This document shows positions 420-19,280 of a stretch of DNA of 19,280 nucleotides, piece by piece. Made by a program: the position numbers and the translations under genes. Origin of the DNA: Candidatus Heimdallarchaeota archaeon (lineage in GTDB: Archaea > Asgardarchaeota > Heimdallarchaeia > JABLTI01). The stretch's first letter is position 1; each line of letters opens with the position of its first letter. The stretch is from NCBI GenBank assembly GCA_019058275.1, contig JAHLVW010000054.1, forward strand, positions 1 to 19,280. The letters run 5' to 3'. The notes below the pieces were generated by a model. It made no database searches, had not been told where the DNA came from, and saw only the letters and a program-made list of their open reading frames with translations.

Positions 420-433
420 GATTTTCAATTCTT

Positions 434-3026: not shown

Positions 3027-3033
3027 AACTAAT

Positions 3034-3067: not shown

Positions 3068-3092
3068 TAAAAGAAATTATTTTGAGATTTGC

Positions 3093-3569: not shown

Positions 3570-3777
3570 TCTTTACACTCACAGGAGTATTTTCTTCCTT
3601 ATCTACATTTTACACTATAGAATCGAGCGTGGGTATCATTTTATAGGTTTTTCTAAAAGTATTTTTTTAGGTGAAAAGGCTGCTTCCTCAAAAAAATAGT
3701 AATTTCATAAGAAACTTAAAAATAAATAGTAGTGAATCTATTCAGAAGACACGAATTACTTACTAAGAGGTATTTTT

Positions 3778-5325
3778 TTGGATTCCAAACGGGATAAAAA
3801 GCAATCAAAACAAAACGAAGAAAATTATCCTTCTCAATTGCTTGAATATTGTTGGAATTGTGGTTCAAAATTAACTAGTGATGAATGGTGTGATGATTGT
3901 AAAGTACCCATAAAGGAAGATGTAAAGTTAGAGGTTTTAAGTCGAACATCTTCTGATGAATCAATTAGATGTTGGAGATGTAAAGGAACCACTTCAGGAG
4001 ATATTTGTGGTATTTGTGGAAGTCCAATTACGAAACAAGGAGTTGAACTCCTAAAGGAAGCAGTGAAAACACAAGTATTTGAACAAATTCCATTAGAAGA
4101 GGAATTTGTTTTCATTCTTTCCCCGAAAGACAGACAAGTTATCAAAACCAATGTTCGATTCTTTAAGTTGGAAGCAATTGTACAAAAACACTTTCAAGTA
4201 GTTAATGCTGCCTTAACGAATTTTGGTCCTGAAATCATCGTTCATATGCCTGAAAACCTTGAAGTATTTGATAGTTTTGAAAACGAAAGCTTGCTCATTG
4301 AAAATTACCTTAGACCAATAATACGTAAAACAAAACTATCTTCAGATTCAAAAAAATACGCTATTATGCGATTCTTTTACTGGATACCAGAAGACACCAC
4401 CAAGAGATTTGCTTTCAATAAGATTCGCTGGAAACTGTTACTATTACTGTTGACCTTCTGCACTATTTTTCTCTCTAGCTGGCTATATTATCGAGAAATT
4501 TATGCTGTGATAACTATTAACAAAAATATCTTTGTTGATGTTTCTATTTTCACCTTTATACTTTTAGCAATCATCTTTACACATGAACTGGGACATGTAC
4601 TAATACAACGCTTGAGAAAAATCAAACTTTCTCTCCCTTTCTTTATCCCGCTACCTCCAACTCCGGGATTGTTAAGCTATTTTATGTTGGGATCTGCCGG
4701 GGGTTTCATTAGAGTTATAAATCCACTACGAAAAAGAAATGATTTATTTGATTTGTTTTTGCTTGGACCTGTTTTTGGATTGACACTGTCAATAGGAATT
4801 TACATCGGAGGTATTGCTTTACCATACATCCAAGACAAGAGTTCTCTTACGACTGAAACGTTAGAGAGAATTGAACAAATGCAAAATTTTGATCCTTTCC
4901 TTTTAATGGGGTGGTTTTTAGATTGGTTTGGTACTAACACAGACATTTCTCCGTCATTCAATCCTGAAACCCAAGTGAAATTCTTACATCCTTTAGCTTA
5001 TGCTGGATTAGTTGGAATAATATTAAACGGGATTAATTTTTTGCCAGGTTCGATACTTGATGGTGGATTCATGTTAGGAAGTCTTGTTAATGAAAAAGTC
5101 TCTCGAGTATTTTCTTTTATTTCTGCACTACTTATTATGTTAAACTATAATACCTGGACCCTAGGAATCTTAACAATGTTTGTTCCCTTAAATGTTTATC
5201 AAACACCCATTACAAATGAAGCAGTGCCAGTACATTGGACAAGGTATATTATCGAAGCGTTTGCAATACTGATAGCCATAAGCTGCTTACCATTGACCAT
5301 TTTCTTCTTCATTTCAAACAATTAA
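3778..5325 (+). CDS. Site-2 protease (peptidase M50) with N-terminal double zinc ribbon, paralog 1
   Basis: CWNC..CDDC and CWRC..CGIC; HELGH within a TM segment; NFLPGSILDGG; multiple TM helices; TTG start preceded by GAGG. Confidence 0.88.
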   Translation: MDSKRDKKQSKQNEENYPSQLLEYCWNCGSKLTSDEWCDDCKVPIKEDVKLEVLSRTSSDESIRCWRCKGTTSGDICGICGSPITKQGVELLKEAVKTQVFEQIPLEEEFVFILSPKDRQVIKTNVRFFKLEAIVQKHFQVVNAALTNFGPEIIVHMPENLEVFDSFENESLLIENYLRPIIRKTKLSSDSKKYAIMRFFYWIPEDTTKRFAFNKIRWKLLLLLLTFCTIFLSSWLYYREIYAVITINKNIFVDVSIFTFILLAIIFTHELGHVLIQRLRKIKLSLPFFIPLPPTPGLLSYFMLGSAGGFIRVINPLRKRNDLFDLFLLGPVFGLTLSIGIYIGGIALPYIQDKSSLTTETLERIEQMQNFDPFLLMGWFLDWFGTNTDISPSFNPETQVKFLHPLAYAGLVGIILNGINFLPGSILDGGFMLGSLVNEKVSRVFSFISALLIMLNYNTWTLGILTMFVPLNVYQTPITNEAVPVHWTRYIIEAFAILIAISCLPLTIFFFISNN

Positions 5326-5428
5326 TAAATAAAGTTGTTTGTAAAATAAAAATTTGCAAGTGAATGATAGTCTTTATATCAGTAATTGATACTGCTAGTA
5401 CGTAGTAGCTGCATATAGAGGAATTTTA

Positions 5429-6988
5429 GTGTCAACAGAAGAACCAAATAATTCACCCCCTTCCAAAGATGAAAAAGAAAACGAGGAAGAAAAGGAAGTA
5501 AAAGGGATAGGTGATTCATCAGAAGTTCAGTTTTGCTGGCACTGTGGAGCTGATATTAGTTTTCAAAAGAAAGATTATTGCGAAAAATGTAATGCCCCCT
5601 TAAGTGAGCAATTAAGGGCAGAGCTTTTAAACCGTCAAGAGCCAACCCAAAGTACAAAGTGTTGGCGTTGTGGTGGAACAACATCAGGTGATGTTTGTGG
5701 CATATGTGGCGCACCACTTACAAAACAAGGTTTTACAGAATTAGAGCAGTATAGAAAAATAGAAGTAGAACAGATTGTTTCAGAAACAATCTCTGTTTTC
5801 TCACCTAAAGATCGTGGATATGTTCCTGTTGAATTGTCTTTTGAGGAATTATCAGAAATAGTTGCCAAATATGTTACAATAATTGATAAAGCAAATAGTC
5901 AAACAACTGGATTGCTATACTATGTTAAGAGACCAGAGAATAGTAATGAAACATTCGCTAAATTAAGAAGCGATTCAATGTTAACTGAAAAGAACTTAAA
6001 GGTAATTATCCGTAATGAAAAAATCTCTCCTGAAGTAAAGCAAGTTGCGCTTAGATTTTATTATTGGAAACCGGAAACAACAAAAGAACGCTACAGTATT
6101 AGATCCATTGGTTGGAATATTGGATTATTTGTAGCAACTATTGTTACAGTATCCATCGCTGGTTGGCAATTTACCAAATCACTGTATACTGAATACGGTT
6201 TCGAGGGAAAACCAGCTTTAGATGTCTTCCTATTTACATTATCAATAATGGGAATTTTAACAATTCATGAATTAGGACATTACTCTGTCTCGAGATTAAA
6301 GAAGATTGATGCATCCCTGCCGTACTTTATTCCCATTCCACCTTTACCTGGTTTTCAAACATTAGGTACTTTTGGAGCTCTAATAAGACAAAAAGAACCT
6401 TTAGCAACAAGAGATGATCTATTTGATATTGGTATTTCAGGACCTGCAGCAGGATTTCTAGTAACTATTCCAGTGTTTATTATTGGTTTAAAGCTATCAT
6501 ATGTAATAGATATTCCACTTGATACGACTGCTGTAGACCCAATTGATATTCCTACTGTGTTACTTATGGATGCTCTAGTATTATTTGGGCAATTTACAAG
6601 AATATTACCCTACTTTGATCCAACAGTTCAAACTGTAGCAATGCATCCAATGATGTTTGCAGGATACGTAGGAATGCTTCTTACAGGTTTGAATCTCATG
6701 CCTGTTTCTCAATTGGATGGTGGTCATACATCTCGAGCAGTTTTCGGACATATTCCACACAGAATAATTTCAATGGTTTTTGCTTTGCTACTAGTACTTA
6801 ATCCCTTTACAAGATACTTCGGCTTATTTGTCCTTTTGATGAGTTTTACTCAGCATCCAGGATCAACAGATGATGTCTCATCTGTTCATTGGTCAAAGTA
6901 TGTTTATATCATCTTAGGCTTTATTATCGGAATTATTTGTCTTCCATTGCCAATCAATTTGATTATTTCATTCTTCACACCAGCTTAA
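5429..6988 (+). CDS. Site-2 protease (peptidase M50, EGY-like group) with N-terminal double zinc ribbon, paralog 2
   Basis: CWHC..CEKC and CWRC..CGIC; HELGH; LPYFIP, GTFGA, LFDIGISGP, NLMPVSQLDGGH; GTG start preceded by GAGG. Confidence 0.92.
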   Translation: MSTEEPNNSPPSKDEKENEEEKEVKGIGDSSEVQFCWHCGADISFQKKDYCEKCNAPLSEQLRAELLNRQEPTQSTKCWRCGGTTSGDVCGICGAPLTKQGFTELEQYRKIEVEQIVSETISVFSPKDRGYVPVELSFEELSEIVAKYVTIIDKANSQTTGLLYYVKRPENSNETFAKLRSDSMLTEKNLKVIIRNEKISPEVKQVALRFYYWKPETTKERYSIRSIGWNIGLFVATIVTVSIAGWQFTKSLYTEYGFEGKPALDVFLFTLSIMGILTIHELGHYSVSRLKKIDASLPYFIPIPPLPGFQTLGTFGALIRQKEPLATRDDLFDIGISGPAAGFLVTIPVFIIGLKLSYVIDIPLDTTAVDPIDIPTVLLMDALVLFGQFTRILPYFDPTVQTVAMHPMMFAGYVGMLLTGLNLMPVSQLDGGHTSRAVFGHIPHRIISMVFALLLVLNPFTRYFGLFVLLMSFTQHPGSTDDVSSVHWSKYVYIILGFIIGIICLPLPINLIISFFTPA

Positions 6989-7092
6989 TAAGTGTGAAGT
7001 GGAATCTTTTCTTCAAATCAGAATAATTAGACACTTTTTATACAAAATGAAATCTTGTACAAACACATTTGTCAACTATTGGAGCTATTCAA

Positions 7093-8022
7093 ATGGAAGA
7101 AACGCAGCCATGGATAAGTTATAACGATAAGGAAATGTATAAATTACTTTACAAACCATTCAAAATTTATGGAAAACAATTTTTGAAGTACTTCTTTCTA
7201 GCACTTATTCCTGAATTTATTCTCTTTGGAATAAGTCAAATAGTCATCATAGAATTATCAGTGCGAAACTATATCCATGGACCAGTCATTGAATTTATTA
7301 TGGATTTTATTGGTGAAACTAGAAATCAAAGAGAAAACATGATGACAGCTTTTGCTTTTCTTTTGTTACTAGCGTTTATTGCTATAATGTATAGAAGTTC
7401 TTTGTTGTCAAATATAACATGGAAAACTATTGAGGAAGGGAAAGCAAATGTCTTTTGGGTAATAGATAGAACATTTAGAAAAACCAAAGAAATTTTGTTA
7501 CTCACTTTATTCTTAATCACAATTGCAGCGTTGCCTTTTGTATTAATATTACTAGCAGTGATACTTCAAGGTAGCACGTTCTTATATGCCTATATTTTTG
7601 GTTGGATGACAGTTATGCTAGCTGTAGCAATTCCAGTAATTTTCTATGGAAGAATATCTATGTTCATTGCAGGTATGAGCAAAGATAATCTACATGTTGG
7701 AGTAGCAATACAAGCTTCTTGGCGATTATCTTCTCAGAAAAATTATATTAGAACTACAACAGTCTTCATAGTCTTTGCTACACTTGGACTTTTCTTACCA
7801 TGGGGTTTAAGTTTATACATCACACAAATTTATACTGGAATTTGGATCCAATTTGGCATGATATTTGTAAGAGGACTCTTTTATCCACTATTTGATATTG
7901 CATTTACTTTAACATATATGAATGCAGAATATATTGCCATTGAAAAGGCAGTTTTTAGTGAATCTATTAAAGAGCAAAGAAAGCTGTCCAAAATGAGAAT
8001 TGAAAATAGCTCAAGTGAATAA
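7093..8022 (+). CDS. Polytopic membrane protein of unknown function (about 6 TM)
   Basis: Long ORF with alternating hydrophobic segments and an 'AIQASWRLS' amphipathic motif. ATG 7093 follows GGAG at 7081 and is preferred over TTG 7069. Confidence 0.75.
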   Translation: MEETQPWISYNDKEMYKLLYKPFKIYGKQFLKYFFLALIPEFILFGISQIVIIELSVRNYIHGPVIEFIMDFIGETRNQRENMMTAFAFLLLLAFIAIMYRSSLLSNITWKTIEEGKANVFWVIDRTFRKTKEILLLTLFLITIAALPFVLILLAVILQGSTFLYAYIFGWMTVMLAVAIPVIFYGRISMFIAGMSKDNLHVGVAIQASWRLSSQKNYIRTTTVFIVFATLGLFLPWGLSLYITQIYTGIWIQFGMIFVRGLFYPLFDIAFTLTYMNAEYIAIEKAVFSESIKEQRKLSKMRIENSSSE

Positions 8023-8041
8023 TAGAAAACTTGAGTGTTTT

Positions 8042-8620
8042 TTATTCAGATGACGTATATTGAGGTAATTTTGCCAAGAGATTTTTTTTCTTAAGGAAAT
8101 CATACAAGGAGGTTATAGTTTCAATCAGTGTATTCTTTTGTTCTTCATCTGAGATGGTGTCTAAACTTATCTCTAGTTGTAATACTTCTTCCTTAGAATT
8201 CTTGACGCTTTTCATAATCTCATCAACATCTTCCTCATTGTTAGAATTGTAAAATGTGGTAAAAGAGTCATCTCCACCATATAATTCTACAGTTAAGAAT
8301 TCATGGTCTCGAGGTAATTGCATAAATTTAGCTAAATGACTCTCGTTAATTTTTTTGGTGGTTAATGAAAAAACACAAAACAAACCATCTAATGAAAAAC
8401 CAATTTCGCCATATGGAAAGATAATAGTAGGATTAGCATAGAAACTTTCATCCCAACCATCATTTAACCGTATAAAGTTACCATGGGAATTATCTAAATC
8501 AATATCAGGTATGACATTTTCAAGTTGAAGAGCAATACGCTCAATGGATTGCCACATATGATTAAGTAAATCATGGATTTTTTCTTTATTATCTCTAAGA
8601 AAATTCTGTAGATCCTTCAT
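8042..8620 (-). CDS. DUF3201-like archaeal protein
   Basis: IHDLLNHMW, GNFI...GW....Y.NP, GEIG, YGG....FYN resemble my recollection of DUF3201 proteins. ATG 8620 follows AGGAAGG and avoids overlap with the upstream gene (ORF track start 8650). Confidence 0.6.
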   Translation of the reverse strand: MKDLQNFLRDNKEKIHDLLNHMWQSIERIALQLENVIPDIDLDNSHGNFIRLNDGWDESFYANPTIIFPYGEIGFSLDGLFCVFSLTTKKINESHLAKFMQLPRDHEFLTVELYGGDDSFTTFYNSNNEEDVDEIMKSVKNSKEEVLQLEISLDTISDEEQKNTLIETITSLYDFLKKKNLLAKLPQYTSSE

Positions 8621-8640
8621 CTTTATCCTTCCTATTTTTT

Positions 8641-9525
8641 TTACAACCATTCTACTTTTGAAGGTTTTCTTGATACAAATGTTCTAAATTTATGTTTTGG
8701 ATAACCAACTATTAACACTTGATAGATTTGATTATCATCAGGTAAATTGAGTATCTTGAGTATTTTTGGATTGAATTTAGCATAATAGGTTAAATAACCA
8801 ATAAAGCATGAACCTAAACCATAACTTTGGGCTAAGATCCTAAAATAGTCAGAAGCAAGAGTGCAATTATCTTCAGGAACATATCCCTTTTTGTGGGAAT
8901 GAAACACAACTACTGCAGGTGCACCATGGAATAGATAATCTTTTCCTTCTCGAAAACCATCAAGCATACGCTGAAAACGTGGTCGAGTACCTTGGGCTTT
9001 ACGAATAGTTGATCTTTTACCGATTAGCTTAGCAAAGAATCTGAAAAATGGACTGTCTATTTTTTTCAGAAAACTAACAATAGTTTTTTCGCTTTCCTCC
9101 TTTAAAAGAGCAATAGTCTCAGGATTATGGATAAGAGAAATCTCAACATTTTGTGAATGATGACCTGTAGGTGAATAGCGAGTAACATCAACTAGCTTTT
9201 CAAGGATCTCTTTTTTGATTGGTTTCTTTAGGAATTTTCTTGTACTACGAATAGATTTCAAGTAGTAATACATTTGATCTCCAAAATTAACTGGTAAGGT
9301 TAGATTATCTTTGATAAAGCCAAAATCATCTGCAGGCATAGTTTTATGACTAATTGCTTGTTCTGGACAAATAGAAACACAGTGACCACAATCGTGACAT
9401 CGAGGATTTGGCATATAGGTGGATTTCTCTTCTGAATTGAGCTCGAAACAGTCTCGAGGGCAAATTTCAATACACGCTTTGCATCCAATACATAATTCTT
9501 GATTTACAACTATCTTGTTATCCAT
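8641..9525 (-). CDS. Nitroreductase family protein with N-terminal 2x[4Fe-4S] ferredoxin domain
   Basis: CIGCKACIEICP and CHDCGHCVSICP; FMN-binding IRSTRKF, SPTGHHSQ, GLGSCFIG, VGYP. Confidence 0.93.
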   Translation of the reverse strand: MDNKIVVNQELCIGCKACIEICPRDCFELNSEEKSTYMPNPRCHDCGHCVSICPEQAISHKTMPADDFGFIKDNLTLPVNFGDQMYYYLKSIRSTRKFLKKPIKKEILEKLVDVTRYSPTGHHSQNVEISLIHNPETIALLKEESEKTIVSFLKKIDSPFFRFFAKLIGKRSTIRKAQGTRPRFQRMLDGFREGKDYLFHGAPAVVVFHSHKKGYVPEDNCTLASDYFRILAQSYGLGSCFIGYLTYYAKFNPKILKILNLPDDNQIYQVLIVGYPKHKFRTFVSRKPSKVEWL

Positions 9526-9606
9526 TCTAGTACCAGCCTTCTATGTTTATCTGATTAGCAGCTGTTTTAAATTTTTAGAAAAAGCGAGGGAATGTTAATC
9601 ACTTAA

Positions 9607-10506
9607 TCATCCCTTAACTGGGCAGAATGCCAGGCCATCTGGGTGAATTCCAACATCAATTGTATCAATGACTTTCAGTGTTTTAATGTCAATAACAGAT
9701 ATATCATTCGTTTTGTTATTGGCTACGTAAGCAAGATTGCCTTTAGCATTAAAGACTGTTCCACCAGGCCAAACTCCAACAGGAATACGTTTAATCTCTC
9801 TATGGTTTTCGACTGTAACAATAGATAAGGTGTTTCCTTCTCGATTTGGTATGAAAGCGTATTTTCCATCTCTACTAAAGGTTACTCTAATTGGTACTCT
9901 ATCAGTTGAAATTCTCGCATATAATGCATTGTTTGAGGTTTCAATTACATACACAAGATCATCATCTTGATTAGCACAATACAGCCACTTGCCATCTGGA
10001 CTGATTGCAATTCCTTCTGGACTTCTACCAACAGGAATATGAGTTATCCATTCAAATGATTTTGTATCTAATATTGAAACCGAATTAGAACCAATATTTG
10101 AAATGTAAGCTTTGGACCCATCTGGCATTAGAGCAGTCATATGACTCATCCTTTTAGCTTCAATAACTTTCTCAACTTCATCTTTCTGAACATCGATAAT
10201 GAAAACTTTATTCGCATAAGTAGAAGCTAGAACAACCTTTGAGCCATCAGGGAGAACTGCAGATTCATGAGGAAATCGAAACTCATCATGTTTTATAATA
10301 GTAATTCTCTCAAGCTTTTTCATATCAAAAACTTCAACAGTATTTGCACCAGCACAAGAGATGTAAGCCTTGACACCATCCGGTGTTACAGATACTTCAT
10401 GAGGGCTTCTACCCACACTGATGGTTTTAACCACTTTTCTGTTGGGTTCATCAACAAATGAGACAGTATCTTCATCTTTATTTAAAACTATCAAGTAATC
10501 GGTCAT
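9607..10506 (-). CDS. YVTN/YncE-family seven-bladed beta-propeller protein
   Basis: About 42-aa repeats of the form I.VG..P.G...SPDG...Y.AN.....V.VID; no signal peptide. Confidence 0.88.
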   Translation of the reverse strand: MTDYLIVLNKDEDTVSFVDEPNRKVVKTISVGRSPHEVSVTPDGVKAYISCAGANTVEVFDMKKLERITIIKHDEFRFPHESAVLPDGSKVVLASTYANKVFIIDVQKDEVEKVIEAKRMSHMTALMPDGSKAYISNIGSNSVSILDTKSFEWITHIPVGRSPEGIAISPDGKWLYCANQDDDLVYVIETSNNALYARISTDRVPIRVTFSRDGKYAFIPNREGNTLSIVTVENHREIKRIPVGVWPGGTVFNAKGNLAYVANNKTNDISVIDIKTLKVIDTIDVGIHPDGLAFCPVKG

Positions 10507-10626
10507 AATTCATCACGTTAACATTATCAAATAAAATATGTCATTTTAGAGTTTTTCCTAGTAAAATTTAATTAAATACTTTTTTTATACAACTACTATG
10601 AAAAAAGAAGGAATAAACTTCCTAAT

Positions 10627-11580
10627 TTATTCATCAGCATATTCTAATTGTACTTCCATTTCTGGTTCCGGGTTTATTTCCTTAACCCAAGCTAATACCC
10701 ACTTTCTGAAAAATGATTGAGCTAAAACAATCGAGATTATAGCTGGAACTATGAGAAAGAACACTGACAAAGTAATTGCCTGAGGATGACTTACTTCAAT
10801 ACCTCCAGTATTCAAATTCTCCAAAAGTGTAATAATATCACTTAGAGAGATTCCTGCCATCAGTGAACTAAAAGCAAAATGCACTATTAGAACAATTGGT
10901 GTTAATATTACAGAGTAACGATAGAGAAAGAAGAAGAAGAAGGAAGTAACGAGAAACAGCAAACCAATGACTAAGATGGACCATTCAGTCGCGAAAAGCT
11001 GCATAGCACCTGTTAAAAAGATCAACCAGAAAGCTGTTAGTTTGAAACGAACTAAAGATTCCTCAGAAAAAGCATAAACTCTTGTTGGTACTGATTCAAA
11101 ATTAGCAAGAAAATAGAGGAGAATAGAAAGTAACAAACTGATTCCCAAAATTAAGGAATAAAGCGGTGTTAGATCTCGCATAAATGGTGCTTGATAAATT
11201 TGAGTGACTCCTAAAGAGACTATTTGTAGGTAGAGTAGGAAAACAGTTGCATAACCAATGATTTGCACTTTACGATCATCTGTAATGAAAGCAGAGAATC
11301 TAGATTCCTTATAATTAAAAGAGGATAAGAATAACAGTAAAATGGAAATGAAAGCAAAAAGGGAAAGAACGGAAAGTAACCAACCAAAGAACAGTTGATA
11401 GCCCATTGCCCTTGAATAAGTATTAGTATCAAAATAAGGCATTACTAGAAATAAGACAGACAAAACAAGTTCAATAATCATAATCAAAGGAAAAATAGTT
11501 AATCGAAAAAACTTCAGCTTGATACTTTCATTAATCATGGAATTATTGCTCCTTAAATAATCATAAGATGATATAGACAT
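10627..11580 (-). CDS. Polytopic membrane protein of unknown function (about 8 TM)
   Basis: 317-aa highly hydrophobic ORF with an acidic C-terminal tail; start uncertain (second ATG 13 codons in). Confidence 0.75.
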   Translation of the reverse strand: MSISSYDYLRSNNSMINESIKLKFFRLTIFPLIMIIELVLSVLFLVMPYFDTNTYSRAMGYQLFFGWLLSVLSLFAFISILLLFLSSFNYKESRFSAFITDDRKVQIIGYATVFLLYLQIVSLGVTQIYQAPFMRDLTPLYSLILGISLLLSILLYFLANFESVPTRVYAFSEESLVRFKLTAFWLIFLTGAMQLFATEWSILVIGLLFLVTSFFFFFLYRYSVILTPIVLIVHFAFSSLMAGISLSDIITLLENLNTGGIEVSHPQAITLSVFFLIVPAIISIVLAQSFFRKWVLAWVKEINPEPEMEVQLEYADE

Positions 11581-11984
11581 TCTAAAGAGTCTTTCTACGA
11601 ATTATTAAAAACTAGCAAAACCAAATCTGAACAAGAAAACTATCAAAAACATTGGATTTTACTCTTTTTTGGATGTTTTAAAAGAAAAAATGATAGAGAA
11701 TACTTGAAAAAAACGATTAAAATTGCTGGGGAGAATGATCACTTTTTACATGAACAGTTTATTCATTAAAAATGCATAACTTTCTTTTTATAATTGCAAA
11801 GTTTTTTTTGCCTGAGAAGTTTACAGAAAATTTTTCTCCTTGGAAAAAGTTTCTTAGGTTTTTATCTTACTTCTTTGGCGAGATTTTTGTTTTTAATTCC
11901 GACAAAAAAGAGATTTTGAGAAAATAAGGATTTGTATGCAATTTAAAGTGAAAACAAGGAAAGAAAAGTCAACGTAAGTAAGCC

Positions 11985-12031
11985 TTTTGATATATCTTTG
12001 AGAGTATATAATTAAGAACAACACTGAGGGT
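11985..12031 (+). promoter_or_regulatory. Candidate TATA elements and Shine-Dalgarno for the 361-aa gene
   Basis: TTTTGATATAT at 11985-11995, TATATAAT at 12005-12012, and GAGGGT 9 nt before ATG 12041. Confidence 0.4.
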
Positions 12032-12040
12032 ATAGAAAAA

Positions 12041-13126
12041 ATGTCTAAAAATACGGTTAACTACTCAACTGAAAACTTTTCTGTAAATAGATTACCGGTG
12101 GGAATAGACTTCTCTAAAACAAATGTCATAAATTTACAAGAAAATGTGGGAAATAATAAAGAGAATTTTGATAAGGAAATTAGAGCTGAGCTTGTAAGTT
12201 TTAATAGGGTTGATAAAAGTGTTAGGCCATATAGAAGTAAAATTTCACTCGGTTCATACATCTCCAAAGAAAACCTACAAAAAATCCTGAAGAAGGAACA
12301 AAAAGATAGAAGCTACTTTGGAATGTTAGAATATGTAAGAAAGAACGATAGAACAACCATTGCTATCAGAGAGGATTTTGATCTCTTACGAGATTTCTTC
12401 CCATCCGAATTAGTTATGGAAGTTGAAGATTTCTGTTATAGAAGCATTTCTAAAGTGGAGAAAGCTATTATCGAAAGAGGGGACAAGAAGCTAACTCCAA
12501 GAAAGAGAAGAGGATACATCTTGGCAGTCTTTCGATCAGTTTGCAGAAAAAATGGCAGAAGATTTACTGAAGAACTACTGGAGGAAATTAATAACCGATT
12601 TGATTACGAACGAAGAATCAAAATATTCGAAGTTTGTAAAGCGGAAAATGACTTGATAGGTTGGAATTTAATCACTAAAAAACCGGAGAAGGCACTTAAT
12701 GATTTACGAGTCTTTTACTTGAATGTTATAAATAATATTAATCGGTTAAAAAGCGACCCAATAATTGCCAATAACAAAGAAAATATGGAAATTGTTACTA
12801 TAACACAAAAGTTCATCACCGATTTTACAACAGCAAAAGACAAGAAGAAAGAACTTACAAAATTAATTAAGCACCAAGATCTTGATTTTGCCTCGAGGCT
12901 CATTATTTGGGTAATTGCAAAACATTTCGCTCAAGAAAAACATAATTTGAATTTTAAAAATCCAGAAGAAGTTCCTGGTTGGTCAACACTGTTCTTAGTC
13001 GAAAGTCCAGATATTGCTGAAAAAAAGGAGCCAATTCCAATTCGATCGATGAAATACATTTTCTGGGCATCGTTTAGCTTACGTAATAAATTAAAAGAAT
13101 GCAAATTACATCCAGAGGATAAATGA
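12041..13126 (+). CDS. Hypothetical protein; possible highly divergent TFB/TFIIB cyclin-fold protein without zinc ribbon
   Basis: The long ORF with an SD is clearly a gene. KLTPRKRRGYILAVFRSVCRKNGRRFTEELLEEI resembles TFB repeat 1 and DFASRLIIWVIAK resembles repeat 2. The family assignment is by eye only. Confidence 0.45.
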   Translation: MSKNTVNYSTENFSVNRLPVGIDFSKTNVINLQENVGNNKENFDKEIRAELVSFNRVDKSVRPYRSKISLGSYISKENLQKILKKEQKDRSYFGMLEYVRKNDRTTIAIREDFDLLRDFFPSELVMEVEDFCYRSISKVEKAIIERGDKKLTPRKRRGYILAVFRSVCRKNGRRFTEELLEEINNRFDYERRIKIFEVCKAENDLIGWNLITKKPEKALNDLRVFYLNVINNINRLKSDPIIANNKENMEIVTITQKFITDFTTAKDKKKELTKLIKHQDLDFASRLIIWVIAKHFAQEKHNLNFKNPEEVPGWSTLFLVESPDIAEKKEPIPIRSMKYIFWASFSLRNKLKECKLHPEDK

Positions 13127-13170
13127 TCAAAAGTAACTGATAAAATGAATTAAAATTAGATTGTGTAAAG

Positions 13171-13203
13171 AAGGGATGTGTTTTTTTAACCGTTCCTTTT
13201 TTT
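13171..13203 (+). terminator. Hairpin plus T-tract downstream of the 361-aa gene
   Basis: AAGGGATG (13171-78) pairs with CGTTCCTT (13191-98) with two GU pairs, followed by a T run; another T7 run lies in the loop. Confidence 0.5.
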
Positions 13204-13236
13204 CTGGACCGATATTCCAATGGTGATTGAAATTGT

Positions 13237-13386
13237 TTATCCCTAGCAAGTCACCGCAACGAGTCCGTTGGTGTGGGTCATCTCTGGTCCTCCGCTAGGA
13301 ACAGTTGAGCGGAGGGTTCCCATCTCCTTATAGGGGATAAGGCTGTTGGTGGCATGAAAAATTCTTTTGGTTTTATTATTCATGCC
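13237..13386 (+). ncRNA. Candidate structured non-coding RNA, family unassigned
   Basis: 62 of 110 bases are G+C at 13241-13350, in a very AT-rich intergenic context. Several stems are present, including CCTCCGCT/AGCGGAGG, CAACG/CGTTG, ATCTCCT/AGGGGAT and GTCACC/GGTGGC. GU wobbles favour the + strand. Confidence 0.45.
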
Positions 13387-13570
13387 TTTCTCTTTGAAAA
13401 TAAATGGAATCACTAGTTATCAATACTTTTTCTTCAGTGATTCCTGAAAGTATTCCTTCTAATCCTTCGCTCCTTTTCAAGCGTTCTCTTAAAACAAACC
13501 TCAATGTCCTAATTGTCTATAAAAAGCGTCAAGTGTTGATACCCCTTCTTTTAAATCAAAAAATAGTTCT

Positions 13571-13894
13571 CTAATGCTTCTTTTTAACAGAACGAATGAA
13601 ATCTAACTTCTTGCTAGTAATAGCTTTCTTTTCTACTGCTTCTTTGAACTTCTTGTTCATTAATTGCAATATTTGTCTGGAAGTTTCTGCTTCAACATTG
13701 TGTTTAGCTAGGATTTTTTTAGTACTAACTAAACTATAAGCTTCTTGATGAGAAATTTGTCTTTCTAAAGTTTCTAACATTTCATTTGTAAAGGTACTTT
13801 TGAAGAACAATAAAACACCTCGAATAATAGGTTCTGGAGTACCTGATACAGTATTCATGAAATCTTGGAAGTAATCATTTTCTTGTGCTGCCAT
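13571..13894 (-). CDS. Small hypothetical protein (107 aa, helical, basic C-terminus)
   Basis: Canonical archaeal SD GGTGA 6 nt before the ATG; natural amino-acid composition; AT-rich promoter-like upstream region. Confidence 0.75.
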   Translation of the reverse strand: MAAQENDYFQDFMNTVSGTPEPIIRGVLLFFKSTFTNEMLETLERQISHQEAYSLVSTKKILAKHNVEAETSRQILQLMNKKFKEAVEKKAITSKKLDFIRSVKKKH

Positions 13895-13981
13895 ATTTTA
13901 TCACCAAATTTTATGTAAGTTGTAAGATTGTTTTAATGTAATATATTAAATTCTTAACTAATCTCTTAAAAGATTTGTCTT

Positions 13982-14035
13982 ACTTTCGAAAGTTCCTTTT
14001 TGCTAAATTTTAGCTTATTTTATAGCTAAAATTTA
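13982..14035. promoter_or_regulatory. Operator-like palindrome and inverted repeat
   Basis: Perfect palindrome ACTTTCGAAAGT (13982-93) and perfect 12-bp inverted repeat TAAATTTTAGCT-N8-AGCTAAAATTTA (14004-14035). Confidence 0.4.
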
Positions 14036-14113
14036 ACTTATCTGGATATTTAGTATGTGAAAAGATTAAATAAATATTTGATAAATCTCATTTTTTCATT
14101 ATTTGATGTAACA

Positions 14114-14305
14114 GTGAGATTTTTAAAGCGATTGCAAGAAGGATTGAAACATTCAGAGATTGGTGAAAAGGCTTTCATTGTCGCCCCCCGGCATTGAACT
14201 CCTTTACAAGACCATCTCTGGAAATTGAGCTGTAAAAGATATATTCTTTTTGGACTACTTGTCCCTCTTCTTCGAGGGACATTAGCCATTTTTGTTACCG
14301 TTTAA
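14114..14305 (+). pseudogene. Possible decayed LuxR/NarL-type HTH fragment
   Basis: The frame reads VRFLKRLQEGLKHSEIGEKAFIVAPRH*TPLQDHLWKLSCKR..., colinear with the LuxR pattern L.L...GL...EIAE.LFIS..TV.TH...I..KL; internal TGA at 14195. Confidence 0.25.
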
Positions 14306-14443
14306 TTCTTAATGAGCATAACATACGTGCTACCCGTCTAAATTTTAATTTCTTGAACTTCTTCAACTGATATACAAGCTGTTGAGAATTACCAGAGAAA
14401 CAATTAAAATAGGATTAACTAAAAGTACAACGAAGTGATTAAA

Positions 14444-15211
14444 ATGGGCATATACAAAGATCTCAAGGGAAAGAGAGTCGTCATAACTGGTGGAGCAAGT
14501 GGGATTGGTTTTGCAACTGCTAAGCGTTTTGTAGATGAAAAAGCAAATGTCGTTATCATTGATTGGAATCAAGAAGAGCTCAATCGTGTATTAGCAACTA
14601 TTCCTGAACTCAAGGGAGGAGTGCATGCTGATGTGAGCAATCCAAAAGATGTCGAAAATGCCTTCAAGAAAGTAGATGAACTTATTGAAGGAATTGACAT
14701 ACTGATATCTAATGCTGGGATAAGCTTTCGCAAGCCATTTTTGAAGATAGACTATGAGCAATGGTCAAAAGTTCTTCGGGTTAATCTAGATGGGATGTTC
14801 TTATGTGCGAAAGAAGCTATAGAGAGAATGAAAAAACAACGTTCTGGAGTCGTTTTATTAACAGCATCTACAAATGGAATTGAAGGACATTCATTATATG
14901 CTGATTACAATAGCTCGAAAGCAGGAGTAATCCTTTTGACAAAAACGTTAGCATTAGAATTTGCTCCATGGTTAAGAGTAAATGCAGTAAGTCCAGGTTA
15001 TGTACTAACAGCAATGCAAAAGGCTGAATATACACCAGAAATGCTTGAGGCAGTCAATTCAAAGATTCCTTTGAATCGTCATGCTGAACCAGAAGAAGTT
15101 GCAAGCTTATTCGCGTTTTTGGCTTCATCTGAAGCAGCATATATTACTGGGCAATCAATAGCTATCGATGGTGGAGAAACAGCTGGTCCATACACACCTA
15201 TAGATGAATGA
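14444..15211 (+). CDS. Short-chain dehydrogenase/reductase (classical SDR, probably NAD-dependent)
   Basis: TGGASGIG, acidic residue after beta2 (IIDWN), SNAG, catalytic YNSSK, VNAVSPG, DGG; ATG 14444 or GTG 14435. Confidence 0.95.
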   Translation: MGIYKDLKGKRVVITGGASGIGFATAKRFVDEKANVVIIDWNQEELNRVLATIPELKGGVHADVSNPKDVENAFKKVDELIEGIDILISNAGISFRKPFLKIDYEQWSKVLRVNLDGMFLCAKEAIERMKKQRSGVVLLTASTNGIEGHSLYADYNSSKAGVILLTKTLALEFAPWLRVNAVSPGYVLTAMQKAEYTPEMLEAVNSKIPLNRHAEPEEVASLFAFLASSEAAYITGQSIAIDGGETAGPYTPIDE

Positions 15212-15249
15212 ATAATAACAATTCAAAAACTTTAGGAGATAGAAAAACT

Positions 15250-16041
15250 ATGAATAAAAAGAATGAACGAATTAATGATCTTGTTTCCCTGGATGGGAAA
15301 GTAGCAGTGGTTACTGGAGGAGCTTCTGGTATTGGTTTAGCAACAGCTAAGCTTCTAGCAGAAGTAGGTGCTACTTTAGCTTTACTAGATATCAATGATT
15401 CAGCAGGAAAAGAAGCAGAGAAGCAAATTAGAGAATTAGGTGGAAAAACAAAATACTACAATTGTAATGTAACTTCGGATTCCGACTGCAAGAAATCAGT
15501 TGAAGCAATCCACAAAGAGTTTGGAAAAATAGATATACTCTTTAACAATGCAGGGGTGATGAGACGCAAAAATGTTTTGGATTTAGAGGAATCAGAATGG
15601 GATCTAATGATTGATGTTAACTTAAAATCAATCTATCTGCTTTCTCGACATGTAATCCCAATCATGATTAAAGGTAAAGGTGGGAGTATTATTAACAACG
15701 GTTCTGGTTGGGCTCTACATGGTGGACCAAATGCGGTAGCTTATTGTGCAGCAAAAGGAGGAGTTCTGAACATGACTCGAGCAATGGCCATAGATCATGG
15801 AAAGGATGGTATACGTGTTAATTGTATCTGCCCAGGTGATGTTGATACTCCCCTTTTACGAGGAGAAGCAAAACAATTAGGTGTTGACGAAGAAGAATTC
15901 ATGAAAGAAGCTGCTGATCGTCCGCTCAATCGCGTAGGGGCACCTCGAGATATTGCTCAAGCAGTTCTTTATCTTGCTAGTGACCTTTCAAGTTGGGTAA
16001 CTGGCACATTCTTACTTGTTGATGGTGGAGGTTTAGCATAG
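15250..16041 (+). CDS. Short-chain dehydrogenase/reductase (classical SDR, probably NAD-dependent)
   Basis: TGGASGIG, LLDIN, NNAG, YCAAK, IRVNCICPG, VDGG. ATG 15250 follows AGGAG; the alternative start 15208 overlaps the upstream stop. Confidence 0.95.
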   Translation: MNKKNERINDLVSLDGKVAVVTGGASGIGLATAKLLAEVGATLALLDINDSAGKEAEKQIRELGGKTKYYNCNVTSDSDCKKSVEAIHKEFGKIDILFNNAGVMRRKNVLDLEESEWDLMIDVNLKSIYLLSRHVIPIMIKGKGGSIINNGSGWALHGGPNAVAYCAAKGGVLNMTRAMAIDHGKDGIRVNCICPGDVDTPLLRGEAKQLGVDEEEFMKEAADRPLNRVGAPRDIAQAVLYLASDLSSWVTGTFLLVDGGGLA

Positions 16042-16092
16042 AACAAATGTTCTACTAATAGGTAAATGTGTTTTTTATTGGAGGATCAAGAT

Positions 16093-17487
16093 ATGAATAA
16101 GAAAAAAATAGTTCATCCTTATATTCCGAATTCAGTACCTGAAGTAAAAGCAAAAATGCTAGAAGAAATCGGTGTTAAGGATATTGAGTCATTTTATGGG
16201 GATATACCTGAGAGCTTGAGGTTTAAGGGTGAAATGAAATTACCAAAACCTTTCCCCTCAGAATATGCTCTTGAACGACATGTAATGAATATTCTAGCAA
16301 AAAACAAGACATGTCAAGAATACCTAAGTTTCTTAGGAGGAGACTGTTGGCAACACTACGTTCCAGCAATATGTGATGAAATTAATAGTCGCTCTGAGCT
16401 TTTAACAGCATACGCAGGTGAACCATATGAGGATCATGGAAGGTTTCAAACATTATTTGAGTATGCTAGTATGATGGGCGAACTTCTGGATATGGATGTT
16501 GTGAATGTTCCAACCTATGATTGGGGACAAGCAGCTAGTACCTCAATAAGGATGGCTGGAAGAATTACAGGTCGTAAAGAAATTCTCATTGCAAAAAGCA
16601 TTTCTCCTGATAGACTCGCAATAATTCAAAACTATTGTAGGCCTGTCGTTAAAGTTAAACTAATTGATTATGATAAGAAGACTGGTGAATTAGATCTTGA
16701 GGATCTGAAAGCTAAGATATCACCAAGAACAGCTGGAATTTACTTTGAAAATCCATCTCATCTTGGCTGTATAGAAAGTCAAGGTAAAACTATTGCAGAG
16801 ATTGCCCACAAACATGGAGCATTAAGTATTGTAGGAACGGACCCAATTACCTTGGGCATTCTTACACCTCCAAGCAATTATGGAGCAGATATCGTTTGTG
16901 GTGATGTACAGTCACTGGGTATGCACATGCAATATGGTGGTGGACTTGCTGGTTTTATTGCTACAAGAGATGAAGAGAAATATGTTATGGAATATCCTTC
17001 AAGACTTTTTGGAATTACTCCAACTATTGTAGAAGGTGAATATGGATTCGGTGACGTAACATATGATCGAACATCCTTCCATGATAGAGTGGAAGGAAAA
17101 GAGTTCATTGGTACTTGTGCAGCACTTTGGGGTATAACTGCGGGAGTATATTTAGCACTGGCAGGATCTCAAGGAATGCAAGAATTAGGGCAATTGATTT
17201 TACAAAAATCGCAATATGCTATGAAGAAAATATCAGAGATTAAGGGAGTAAAAATACCATTCCTAAAATCTCCACATTTCAAAGAGTTTGTCGTGGATTT
17301 CAGTGCTACTGGAAAAACTGTAAAAGAAGTGAATAAATCATTACTGAAGAAAGGTATTTTTGGAGGTAAAGATATTTCTAGTGAATTCCCAGAATTAGGG
17401 AATTGTGCTGTCTATTGTGTAACAGAAATACACACGAAGGAGGATATTGACAAATTAGCTCAAGCATTGGCTGAATGTTTGAATTAA
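16093..17487 (+). CDS. gcvPA: Glycine cleavage system P protein subunit 1-like (divergent)
   Basis: HPYIP, SFLGG, HYVP, FQTLFEY.SM, YD.G.A, GADIVCGD.QSLG, YGG, P.RL.G, VTE motifs; ATG 16093 follows GAGG. Confidence 0.85.
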   Translation: MNKKKIVHPYIPNSVPEVKAKMLEEIGVKDIESFYGDIPESLRFKGEMKLPKPFPSEYALERHVMNILAKNKTCQEYLSFLGGDCWQHYVPAICDEINSRSELLTAYAGEPYEDHGRFQTLFEYASMMGELLDMDVVNVPTYDWGQAASTSIRMAGRITGRKEILIAKSISPDRLAIIQNYCRPVVKVKLIDYDKKTGELDLEDLKAKISPRTAGIYFENPSHLGCIESQGKTIAEIAHKHGALSIVGTDPITLGILTPPSNYGADIVCGDVQSLGMHMQYGGGLAGFIATRDEEKYVMEYPSRLFGITPTIVEGEYGFGDVTYDRTSFHDRVEGKEFIGTCAALWGITAGVYLALAGSQGMQELGQLILQKSQYAMKKISEIKGVKIPFLKSPHFKEFVVDFSATGKTVKEVNKSLLKKGIFGGKDISSEFPELGNCAVYCVTEIHTKEDIDKLAQALAECLN

Positions 17488-17518
17488 GGAGAAGCAAAAC
17501 ATAAAGGATGAATTTACC

Positions 17519-19069
17519 ATGACAAGAGAAATCAAAGTAAGAAATTTTCATCAAGCTAAATGGGATGAGCCAGTTATTTTTGAATTAAGCAATAAGGGGG
17601 AACGAGGGATACTATTTCCGGAGATTGAGGAGGAGATAGAAGTCATAGTTGGCGATGGACTTTCTAAATTACCAAAAAACATGATAAGAAAGCAACCTCC
17701 CCAATTACCAGAGCTGTCCCAAATGCAAGTGCTAAAACATTATCTCCGCTTATCTCAACAAACTCTTGGTGCGGATCTAAATGTGGACATTGGGCAAGGA
17801 ACTTGCACTATGAAATATAGTCCAAAGATCAATGAAAAAATAGCTTCGTCTCCCAAACTTACGGAGCTACATCCAGCACAAGATGAAAGTACAGTTCAAG
17901 GAATTCTTGAGATTATCTATAAACTTGACTTGTTTCTCAGAGAAATCTCAGGATTAGATAAATTTACATTCCAACCCGGAGGTGGCGGTCAAGCTATCTT
18001 TGCTATGGTTTCTATGATAGAAGCATACCATGCAGCTAATAATGAAGCTGAACAACGAGACGAAATTATCTCCACGATGTTTTCCCATCCATCTGATGCT
18101 GCAGCTCCTACCGTTAAAGGGTATAAAGTTATTAATATTTATCCAAATGAAGATGGTTTACCAGATGTTGAAGCATTGGAGAAAGCAGTCTCAGAACATA
18201 CTGCTGGGTTGTTAATAACCAATCCAGAAGATACTGGCATCTTTAATCCTAAGATAAAGGAGTTCACTGATATCATTCACAAAGCAGGTGGTATTTGTGG
18301 GTATGATCAAGCTAATGCTAATGGTATAATAGGAATAACAAGAGCAAAAGAAGCAGGTTTTGATATGAGTTTCTTTAATCTTCACAAAACCTTTTCTTCG
18401 CCACATGGTTGCGGTGGTCCAGCCACAGGAGCATTAGGTGTAGCAAAGGAATTTATAAAATATCTTCCAGTTCCTCTAGTAGAATTTGAAAAAGAGAAAT
18501 ACTATTTCAACTACGACCTTCCCAAGAGTATAGGTAAAGTTAGAGCTTTCTATGGAGTAATTCCAGCTATTGTGAAAGCATATTCATGGATAATGAGCTT
18601 AGGAAGTGAGGGATTGAAAGAAGTTGCTCACATAGCTGTTCTCAACAACAATTATCTTCTTAAGAAAGTGTTGGAAATTCCTGGTGCTAGTGCACCATAT
18701 GCGAAAGGTAGACACAGAATAGAACAAGTACGTTATAGTTGGGAAGATCTTTACAAGGATACAGGAATAACAACAGAAGATGTTACCAATCGAATGGTTG
18801 ATTTCGGATTTCACATGTGGTCATCGCATCATCCCTTTATTGTCCCACAACCATTTACTCTTGAACCAACTGAATCTTACGCGAAAGCTGAAATCGATGA
18901 ATACATAGCAGGATTAAAGAGAGTAGCTAAAGAAGCGTATGAAAATCCAGAGATAGTTAAAAACGCTCCTCACCAAAGTGTTGTTCATAAAATTGACCAT
19001 GATCCGTTAGATGATCCTAATAGATGGGCTATAACTTGGAGGGCTTACTTAAAGAAAAACAAAAAGTAA
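17519..19069 (+). CDS. gcvPB: Glycine cleavage system P protein subunit 2-like, PLP-binding (divergent)
   Basis: LPELS, GTCTMKYSP, HP.Q....VQG.L, TNP, YDQAN, PLP-lysine motif NLHKTFSSPHG.GGP, A.LNNNY, EPTES. Confidence 0.88.
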   Translation: MTREIKVRNFHQAKWDEPVIFELSNKGERGILFPEIEEEIEVIVGDGLSKLPKNMIRKQPPQLPELSQMQVLKHYLRLSQQTLGADLNVDIGQGTCTMKYSPKINEKIASSPKLTELHPAQDESTVQGILEIIYKLDLFLREISGLDKFTFQPGGGGQAIFAMVSMIEAYHAANNEAEQRDEIISTMFSHPSDAAAPTVKGYKVINIYPNEDGLPDVEALEKAVSEHTAGLLITNPEDTGIFNPKIKEFTDIIHKAGGICGYDQANANGIIGITRAKEAGFDMSFFNLHKTFSSPHGCGGPATGALGVAKEFIKYLPVPLVEFEKEKYYFNYDLPKSIGKVRAFYGVIPAIVKAYSWIMSLGSEGLKEVAHIAVLNNNYLLKKVLEIPGASAPYAKGRHRIEQVRYSWEDLYKDTGITTEDVTNRMVDFGFHMWSSHHPFIVPQPFTLEPTESYAKAEIDEYIAGLKRVAKEAYENPEIVKNAPHQSVVHKIDHDPLDDPNRWAITWRAYLKKNKK

Positions 19070-19092
19070 GTCATGTAAAAAGATGATCTGAT

Positions 19093-19280
19093 TTGAAGAA
19101 AGTAGGTCTAATTGTAAATCCTATTGCTGGCATGGGTGGTAAAGTTGGTCTTAAAGGAACAAATGGCTTAGAAATTATTGAGAAAGCTAAATCCCTTGGA
19201 GCAAAACCGGAAACACCCAAGCGAACAATGGAAGCATTGAATAGACTTACCTTCCTTAAAAATGAGATTGAGTTAATAAC
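19093..19280 (+). CDS. ATP-NAD kinase-like protein (COG3199/AcoX-related), N-terminal part, runs off the window
   Basis: Translated by hand, absent from the ORF track: a TTG start gives MKKVGLIVNPIAGMGGKVGLKGTNGLEIIEKAKSLGAKPETPKR..., with the family's NPIAGMGG.VGLKG signature. Confidence 0.85.
   Translation, partial: MKKVGLIVNPIAGMGGKVGLKGTNGLEIIEKAKSLGAKPETPKRTMEALNRLTFLKNEIELI

Follow-up and report, generated by a model that had tools for sequence, protein, structure and literature searches.

What is a pair of glycine decarboxylase-like proteins doing in an operon with two dehydrogenase genes and the gene of a kinase-fold protein? The question is raised by a 19,280-nt contig of Candidatus Heimdallarchaeota archaeon (NCBI GenBank assembly GCA_019058275.1, contig JAHLVW010000054.1, positions 1 to 19,280 of the forward strand), which was analysed over its whole length and is referred to here as the window. 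Between positions 14444 and 19280, five genes lie on the + strand: two encode short-chain dehydrogenases/reductases (SDR1 and SDR2), two encode paralogs of the subunits of the glycine cleavage P-protein (GcvPA and GcvPB, hereafter PA and PB), and the last is the 5′-part of the kinase-fold gene. An earlier note, made from the letters of the window, had taken the pair for a P-protein paralog that decarboxylates a different amino acid, perhaps a hydroxylated or sugar-derived one. The five genes most likely constitute a self-contained, horizontally mobile catabolic module outside glycine cleavage. In our preferred reading, to which we give a probability of about 0.45, the module serves the catabolism of an aminomethyl-carbinol (R-CHOH-CH2-NH2), the best candidate being 5-hydroxylysine from collagen-type glucosyl-galactosyl-hydroxylysine (Glc-Gal-hydroxylysine) glycopeptides.

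A P-protein paralog beside a canonical glycine cleavage system

The alpha subunit, PA (16066–17487, + strand, 473 aa), and the beta subunit, PB (17519–19069, + strand, 516 aa), are recognised by the NCBIfam models for GcvPA (NF001696, 494.5 bits, cut-off 364) and GcvPB (NF003346, 580.4 bits, cut-off 441). Among PDB sequences they match 1WYT_A (PA, E-value 9.5e-65) and 1WYT_B (PB, 1.8e-92). Since both subunits lie above the NCBIfam cut-offs, their mislabelling as glycine cleavage proteins is systematic. The same genome contains a canonical gcvH-gcvPA-gcvPB cluster on contig C61 and gcvT on contig C96; the second, canonical gcvP that the earlier note had proposed to look for is therefore present. 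The window's proteins share 35% (PA) and 42% (PB) identity with these canonical copies, and against the Pfam GDC-P family the window PA scores 197 bits, compared with 392 for the genome's canonical copy. Of 31 class-level relatives, 28 have a canonical GcvPB and 14 have the variant.

In a tree of 59 GcvPB-type sequences, of which 25 are canonical (the genome's own included), the 34 non-canonical sequences form a superclade separated from the canonical proteins by branches with a support of 99 in the Shimodaira–Hasegawa-like approximate likelihood ratio test (SH-aLRT). The window PB belongs to this superclade, within a tight sub-clade of short branches whose branching order does not follow taxonomy: the window's Asgard group is found beside Desulfobacterales and Gemmatimonadota, and Bathyarchaeota group with Korarchaeum. 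Clade members, although drawn from two domains and over 10 phyla, are 65–87% identical, which points to strong constraint combined with horizontal spread. Forcing the window PB to be sister to the genome's canonical PB lowers the log-likelihood by 333 and is rejected by the approximately unbiased (AU) test (p-AU 4e-74; reduced set of 24 rows, LG+G4, the tested group having been chosen after the tree was seen). A recent duplication of gcvP within the lineage is thereby rejected. The window pair is a P-protein paralog of a separate clade that coexists with a canonical glycine cleavage system (GCS), its distinctness being carried by the SH-aLRT separation and by the AU rejection of sisterhood with the canonical copy; the tree that the earlier note had called for thus places the variant proteins in a clade of their own, not nested among canonical GcvP.

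Remodelling of the active site

Like the GcvPA/GcvPB enzyme (EC 1.4.4.2) of Thermus thermophilus (PDB 1WYT/1WYU/1WYV), with which it shares the two-gene architecture and the fold family, the module pair has the Schiff-base Lys, the Asp to the pyridine nitrogen and the stacking His of a pyridoxal phosphate (PLP) enzyme. In the window PB these are K290 (NLHKTF), D263 (YDQAN) and H190 (FSHPS), all invariant in 49 clade members, in line with the earlier note's view that the PLP machinery is intact. Translation of the window gives TAYAGEPYEDHG in PA, and CTMKY, QPGGGGQAI, FSHPSDAAA, YDQANANG and HKTFSSPHGCGGP in PB. Every motif replacement quoted in the earlier note was found in these translations and is fixed across the clade. 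Canonical GcvPB representatives read LGSCTMKY, QPAAGAxGE, SAHGTNPA, DGAN and PHGGGGPG, whereas superclade members read QGTCTMKY, SHP[SA][DN]AA and DQANAN, with PHGCGGP in the window's clade, so that the two sets split cleanly.

When a position is called clade-specific if at least 90% fixed in 76 clade members and at least 80% fixed to another residue in the 25 canonical PB, there are 25 such substitutions in PB and 36 in PA, and the remodelled first shell is conserved through the clade. Examples from PB (clade/canonical) are T186/P, S189/A, P191/G, S192/T, D238/T, Q264/G, C298/G, E402/H and H438/F; Cys298, invariant in the clade, replaces a canonical Gly near the lysine. In PA, the loop AYTPYQPExxQG has become AYAG-EPYEDHG, which retains the first Tyr but not the second and has Glu and His in place of the two Gln, and the signature REQH...ATSNIC has become RTSF...GKEFIG. 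The altered loop aligns to Tyr95–Gln99 of the T. thermophilus alpha subunit (1WYT_A: Y95-T96-P97-Y98-Q99). The two loop tyrosines of that subunit align with human Y161 and Y164, which are listed as active-site positions (PMC7259800). The altered motifs are 90–100% conserved in the 76 clade members, as against 80–100% for the canonical residues in canonical enzymes, and are thus neither noise nor drift.

Judged from these alignments, the cofactor machinery appears to have been kept and the side of the pocket for glycine's carboxylate rebuilt. Because it is this side that is altered, decarboxylation of an alpha-amino acid fits no better than C–C cleavage of an aminomethyl ketone or phospho-lyase chemistry. 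Acidic residues have been added in PA (E119, E122, D123) and PB (D238, E402) and basic ones in PA (R162, K345); together they would match a substrate that is zwitterionic at its distal end.

Operon structure and conserved gene partners

The intergenic gaps across the five-gene operon are 23–38 nt. The open reading frames (ORFs) agree with the gene calls of an identical NCBI locus on a 2.26-Mb contig (L009), and both bear out the tight, co-oriented packing that the earlier note had described. Convergent Gar1 and SRP19 genes follow the kinase-fold gene in L009, so the operon comprises five genes and nothing further 3′. Neither gcvT nor gcvH is present in the window, as had been noticed before, or in the 10 kb past its end according to the L009 gene calls.

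Neighbourhoods of 10 kb were surveyed around 80 related loci from Asgard archaea, Bathy-, Kor- and Brockarchaeota and more than 10 bacterial phyla. PB is accompanied by PA in 79 of them, by an SDR in 74 and by the kinase-fold gene in 53. Conservation extends to no further gene family, and gcvH and gcvT are found in none of the 80. Of the neighbours that the earlier note had put forward, the SDR and the COG3199-type kinase-fold gene are therefore conserved and gcvT is absent as expected, whereas lplA, lpd and gcvH are not conserved. Cultured carriers of the module are Neobacillus rhizosphaerae CIP 111895, Clostridium collagenovorans DSM 3089, C. hydrogeniformans DSM 21757 and Lutispora saccharofermentans.

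Both SDRs of the window match Pfam adh_short and adh_short_C2 at 1e-52 to 1e-68 and have the features of classical SDRs, namely the dinucleotide motif TGxxxGxG, a catalytic Ser, YxxxK and a length of about 250 aa. SDR1 (14444–15211, + strand, 255 aa from ATG, with an alternative GTG at 14435; adh_short_C2, 2e-61) carries TGGASGIG and YxxxK, and its closest solved relatives are 2,3-butanediol and glucose dehydrogenases. It is an accessory member of the module, found in many but not all related loci. Of all partners, SDR2 (15250–16041, + strand, 263 aa, longest ORF from 15208; adh_short_C2, 3e-68) accompanies the P-like pair most consistently. The Asp after strand 2 in both proteins (IID and LLD), a usual feature of catabolic enzymes that depend on NAD, suggests a preference for NAD over NADP. 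Oxidation by the SDRs forms part of the route proposed below; for epimerisation of substrate or product, which the earlier note had offered as the other option, no support was found.

Deeper sister clades of the superclade keep PA, PB and the kinase-fold gene together with dehydrogenase or amine-catabolic genes. The triad is joined by a PucR regulator in P0122, by an SDR and a TetR regulator in P0128, and by a class-III aminotransferase and a DAO-type oxidase in P0124; the neighbours of P0124 and P0126 are class-III aminotransferases, a DAO-type oxidase or a tripartite ATP-independent periplasmic (TRAP) transporter. In P0125 (metagenome contig, L091:3147–16112), a Zn-dependent alcohol dehydrogenase (ADH)-SDR-PA-PB-kinase operon is joined to a Pot-type ATP-binding cassette (ABC) importer and to homologues of PuuA, PuuD and aldehyde dehydrogenase, a neighbourhood that suggests a hydroxylated polyamine as the substrate of that clade. 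With such partners, the superclade as a whole has the look of amine catabolism.

Relation to the glycine cleavage system

The H-protein occurs in 48 of 49 module genomes, compared with 34 of 120 sampled Clostridia, and is thus positively associated with the module. Either the module might make use of lipoyl-H, or the association may reflect no more than a lifestyle of peptide and collagen degradation with abundant glycine. It is not obligatory, since the isolate C. collagenovorans DSM 3089 carries the module without GCV_H, GCV_T or canonical P-protein (a single match to the BPL/LplA family was found), as does a second Clostridia genome (G394). The module pair accordingly departs from GcvPA/GcvPB in its active-site motifs, its clade membership, its lack of GCS linkage, its linkage to SDR and kinase-fold genes and its occurrence in two genomes without any GCS. 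It is very likely, in our view, that the module takes no part in the GCS as a glycine decarboxylase.

Besides the canonical H-protein, the window's genome contains GCV_H-domain matches at C59:6337–6696, C97:21988–22290 and C22:38535–38687, one of which sits within a 295-aa open frame. Three to four H-like genes are also found in several Asgard relatives.

Glycoside and peptide contexts of bacterial loci

Pfam families were tallied among the flanking genes of the non-Asgard loci in a first and a second ring. LacZ-type beta-galactosidases of glycoside hydrolase family 2 (GH2) are the most frequent in the first ring, followed by sigma-54 activators, GH63 glucosidases of the MGH1/YgjK type, fucosidase, GalT, amino-acid permeases, dipeptidyl peptidase IV (DPP-IV) and S8 peptidases, while ABC permeases and galactokinase (GalK) are prominent in the second. 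In total, GH2 was counted at seven loci, GH63 at four and DPP-IV at four. GalT, GalK, sugar importers of the ABC or SusCD type, DPP-IV and S28/S37, M24 and C69 peptidases are found beside or within the module. Several individual loci are informative. L066 reads substrate-binding protein (SBP)-permease-permease-GH2-SDR2-PA-PB-GalT-GalK-M24 peptidase-GH63, and the Bacteroidota locus L086 reads SusC-SusD-GH2-SDR2-PA-PB-GH63. In the isolate N. rhizosphaerae (L079), a major facilitator superfamily (MFS) transporter gene-GH63-GH2 and a divergent sigma-54 activator accompany SDR2-PA-PB-SBP-permease-permease-GH2. Peptidases are present in L090 (S28/S37 peptidase-C69 dipeptidase-SDR2-GH63-SDR1-PA-PB-kinase) and L075 (GH2-DPP-IV-SDR2-PA-PB-kinase). 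The glycosidase pattern is repeated in the sister clade P0121, where L122 contains TonB receptor-PA-PB-GH63-unknown-SDR-GH2-GntR. The protein between GH63 and SDR in that locus (L122:10612–11751, 379 aa) has a Rossmann-like N-terminus and no Pfam match, and is unrelated to the kinase-fold protein.

The GH63 enzyme YgjK of Escherichia coli reportedly accepts the Glc-alpha1,2-Gal disaccharide. Beta-galactosidase, alpha-glucosidase, Leloir enzymes, proline-specific peptidases and an enzyme for a primary amine form a set that fits Glc-Gal-hydroxylysine. The glycan of collagen is Glc-alpha1,2-Gal-beta1-O-hydroxylysine (PMC8537180). The hydroxylated or sugar-derived substrate guessed in the earlier note thus gains support, as a hydroxylated, glycoside-derived amino compound, from the bacterial GH2, GH63, GalT/GalK and peptidase contexts.

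Elsewhere in the window's genome, a full-length LacZ-type GH2 homologue is encoded at C22:82437–85568 (− strand), which shares 37% identity over 1067 aa with the GH2 linked to the Neobacillus module, and a GalK-like match lies on the same contig. GH63 was not found in this genome by tblastn with one query, which is not evidence of absence.

The kinase-fold protein and its predicted docking on PB

The NAD-kinase/diacylglycerol (DAG)-kinase-fold gene begins at 19093 with a TTG start and runs on the + strand to 19280, where the contig end interrupts it after 62 codons. The complete gene, encoding 371 aa, is found at L009:11575–12690, and the remainder in the same assembly lies at the start of contig C102 (102–1214). 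The assembly break falls within this gene, and the window contig and C102 appear to overlap. In the complete protein, Pfam detects NAD_kinase and NAD_kinase_C, and related sequence clusters carry PF01513, PF20143 and PF00781. The motifs NPxAGxGG, GGDGT and GIPxGVK are invariant, GGDG being the phosphate-donor motif of the NAD kinase/DAG kinase/sphingosine kinase superfamily, to which the protein belongs by motif and fold. Fold matches to NADK (Z 11.1), DgkB (Z 11.0) and SphK1 (Z 10.1) are confined to residues 1–207, and no kinase match covers the C-terminal ~165 residues. No NCBIfam family was matched at E 0.01 and no PDB sequence at E 1, and Foldseek template modelling (TM) scores to solved structures are only 0.24–0.35. 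Given this lack of NCBIfam and PDB matches, the low TM scores and the uncovered C-terminus, the protein is not recognisable as a bona fide NAD kinase (NadK/PpnK, EC 2.7.1.23). We use the name COG3199/AcoX for the protein on the assumption that it is an orthologue of the AcoX of acoXABC.

Co-folding predicts that the kinase-fold protein docks on PB, with an interface score (ipSAE) of 0.75 in three concordant runs, 0.00 in three controls and a partner predicted local distance difference test (pLDDT) of 80–81. Of 80 solved complexes, 58 reach the ipSAE mark used, as do 2 of 110 mismatched pairs; with custom alignments these counts apply only roughly. In the model, the C-terminal strand 353–368 of the kinase-fold protein pairs with PB strand 201–208, adjoining the His190 loop. 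Searches of the PDB returned no solved complex of this kind. The predicted PB interface has an identity to consensus of 0.65–0.85, compared with 0.70–0.75 elsewhere, and is similar in kinase-less lineages, kinase-bearing lineages and canonical PB.

The kinase-fold gene is missing from 27 of the 80 loci, being a partner in about two thirds of lineages. In five module genomes, including the isolate N. rhizosphaerae, no homologue was found anywhere in the genome by a search whose positive control worked; the gene is thus dispensable.

A second COG3199-type paralog, 44% identical to that of the operon, is encoded in the window's genome at C61:141445–142545 (− strand; L098:3081–4187), where it converges on the canonical gcvH-gcvPA-gcvPB cluster and is the next gene after it. 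This arrangement occurs in all same-family relatives whose contigs reach far enough and is absent from three other Heimdallarchaeia families. Since the PB residues that touch the kinase-fold protein in the model are similar in canonical PB, such proteins might bind P-proteins generally.

Proposed function and alternatives

From the separate clade, the pocket changes, the gene partnership, the independence from gcvT and gcvH and the glycosidase and peptidase contexts, we infer a substrate, an order of steps and a bond that would be broken. That the module degrades a hydroxylated primary amine is probable. That the physiological substrate in the window's clade is 5-hydroxylysine or its glycosides has about even odds. 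In the proposed route, SDR2 would oxidise the C5 hydroxyl to an aminomethyl ketone, and the P-like enzyme would then hold the terminal CH2-NH2 as it holds glycine and break the adjacent C–C bond. The products would be a glutamyl part and a C1-amine unit, the latter being passed to lipoyl-H where a GCS exists or freed as methylamine. The kinase-fold protein would be a dispensable, docked accessory, acting as a channelling kinase or as a regulator. This order, with SDR oxidation to the aminomethyl ketone followed by P-like cleavage of the bond that corresponds to the C–COO bond of glycine, is put forward tentatively, as possible rather than probable; it is favoured by the five kinase-less module genomes, which keep SDR2-PA-PB. 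In its most specific form, the route would be a new reaction type for the P-protein fold, in which 5-oxolysine, the SDR product of hydroxylysine, is converted to glutamate and a C1-amine unit with Cys298 or water as acyl acceptor and a docked kinase-fold subunit, a proposal that is speculative and, as a whole, unlikely.

Two known systems resemble the proposed route. In acoXABC, AcoX (COG3199) is encoded beside the acetoin-cleaving enzyme, and butanediol dehydrogenase makes the carbonyl. As in the module, a kinase-fold gene adjoins a two-subunit cofactor enzyme that breaks a C–C bond next to a carbonyl, and this carbonyl is supplied by SDR-type dehydrogenases, 2,3-butanediol dehydrogenases being among the closest solved relatives of SDR1. 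The acetoin system differs in that it uses a thiamine diphosphate (TPP)-dependent E1 and a lipoyl E2, whereas the module has a PLP-dependent P-like enzyme and no carrier gene. L-Threonine dehydrogenase with 2-amino-3-ketobutyrate CoA ligase (Tdh/Kbl) and the reversed alpha-oxoamine synthases likewise couple NAD-dependent oxidation of a carbinol beside an amine to PLP-dependent cleavage between the amino carbon and the new carbonyl. The PLP enzyme of the module is of a different family, with Cys298 as its candidate acyl acceptor.

Several points weigh against the hydroxylysine reading. The module members are known from sequence and models, no glycosidase, peptidase or transporter gene lies beside the operon in the window, and the substrate argument is carried over from roughly 10 of the 59 bacterial loci. 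In the deep sister clades the constant partner is the kinase-fold gene, for which the proposed route has no necessary role. The surface at which it is predicted to dock is conserved in kinase-less lineages and canonical PB to the same degree as elsewhere, so that evolution does not confirm the docking. We know of no precedent for a retro-Claisen-type cleavage in the P-protein fold. The near-universal presence of the H-protein in module genomes means that use of lipoyl-H, or a link through glycine, may be involved, and the size of the hydroxylysine supply to anoxic sediments is uncertain.

A module of the same kind could act on a different substrate, such as another hydroxylated amine or a sugar-derived amino acid, with specificity that may vary by clade; examples are an aminated sugar acid or polyol, polyamines of the 2-hydroxyputrescine type, isoserine and compounds like gamma-amino-beta-hydroxybutyrate (GABOB). 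Some loci contain sugar ABC transporters, glycosidases, a fucosidase and GFO/IDH-type dehydrogenases, the polyamine cluster of P0125 and the aminotransferase, oxidase or transporter genes of P0124 and P0126 point to other amines, and in most Asgard loci the context gives no clue to the substrate. We nevertheless regard a different substrate in the window's clade as rather unlikely, given that the set of genes that recurs in this clade and in the sister closest to it fits a single known natural conjugate, Glc-Gal-hydroxylysine, and that genes for amino-sugar deacetylases or deaminases were not seen among the module neighbours.

Alternatively, the kinase-fold protein could act first and phosphorylate an amino alcohol or hydroxy-amino acid at its hydroxyl, the P-like enzyme being a phospho-lyase or a decarboxylase of the phosphorylated substrate and the SDRs taking the carbonyl product. 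Such an order has analogies in hydroxylysine kinase with phosphohydroxylysine phospho-lyase, ethanolamine kinase with its phospho-lyase, sphingosine kinase with sphingosine-1-phosphate (S1P) lyase, and PduX with CobD, and hydroxylysine is a known substrate of the kinase/phospho-lyase route in animals. The hydroxylysine and ethanolamine pairs and the mycobacterial aminopropanol kinase pathway resemble the module in applying a kinase, a PLP enzyme and a dehydrogenase to a vicinal amino alcohol. Their folds are unrelated to those of the module, the lyases being class-III aminotransferases and the kinases of the APH or GHMP type, and the kinase of the module is dispensable in a third of lineages. 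PA-PB-kinase is nevertheless a constant triad in all sampled non-canonical clades, with a PB–kinase gap of 23 nt in the window and 1 nt at L091 and an overlap at L094. The motifs for phosphotransfer (NPxAG, GGDGT and GIPxGxK) show no variation, the N-domain resembles NADK, DgkB and SphK1 at Z 10–11, and docking is predicted beside the His190 loop of PB (ipSAE 0.75, best control 0.00). What makes kinase-first catalysis unlikely is the absence of the gene from 27 of the 80 loci, the retention of SDR2-PA-PB within complete glycoside-utilisation loci in the five genomes (one an isolate) without any homologue, and the fact that the most constant partner in the window's clade is an SDR and not the kinase.

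It is very improbable that the pair is a second isozyme of glycine decarboxylase relying on the H, T and L proteins of the genome, for instance in the reductive direction or under other regulation. Such an isozyme would account for the passing of both NCBIfam equivalog models, the retained PLP lysine, Asp and stacking His and the H-protein in nearly all module genomes, but motifs fixed in all canonical enzymes are exchanged for other fixed residues, the clade is separate, with its own gene partners and never adjacent to gcvT or gcvH, two genomes hold the module without H, T or canonical P, and the module is embedded in glycoside and peptide utilisation loci. Biosynthesis of the cobalamin linker (aminopropanol phosphate) was rejected because sigma-54 activators, permeases and glycosidases indicate catabolism, and lipid or sphingoid substrates were rejected because the proteins are soluble and the importers are of the sugar and amino-acid type.

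Other features of the window

The source contig is that of a Heimdallarchaeia-type Asgard archaeon whose relatives are named Heimdallarchaeota, and proteins identical to those of the window are also present in GCA_019058195.1. A thermosome gene lies on the same contig at 1371–3026. Tandem paralogs of 515 and 519 aa are encoded at 3778–5325 and 5429–6988 (+ strand); both have an M50 (site-2 protease) domain at the C-terminus and resemble a zinc ribbon at the N-terminus. Four ORFs, at 12041–13126 (+), 10627–11580 (−), 7069–8022 (+) and 13571–13894 (−), encode proteins of 361, 317, 317 and 107 aa without a Pfam family; the two of them checked against NCBIfam matched no family there, and all four are NCBI gene calls, whole or clipped at the locus edge. 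About 0.5 kb of non-coding DNA separates the last of them from the operon. No Rfam family and no tRNA was found in the window.

Implications

The module pair is a functionally distinct subfamily with its own pathway partners, and our literature searches found no paper that describes the module. NCBI equivalog models and most pipelines name these proteins GcvPA and GcvPB, so that metabolic reconstructions of Asgard archaea, Bathyarchaeota, Aminicenantes, Chloroflexota and Clostridia can credit these groups with a step of glycine cleavage or of the reductive glycine pathway that does not exist; the sole "GcvP" of C. collagenovorans is the module paralog. The proteins make up a large, strongly conserved and horizontally spread family of PLP enzymes without an assigned reaction. 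To our knowledge, the role of their AcoX-type kinase-fold partner family has been open for decades. If hydroxylysine or its glycosides are indeed the substrate, the module would provide a microbial route for a collagen-specific residue, none having been described in the papers searched, and a clue to the diet of sediment Asgard archaea. If 5-oxolysine is in fact cleaved as proposed, the module would represent a new pathway, widespread among Asgard archaea and many anaerobes, by which collagen glycopeptides are turned into glutamate and feed one-carbon metabolism.

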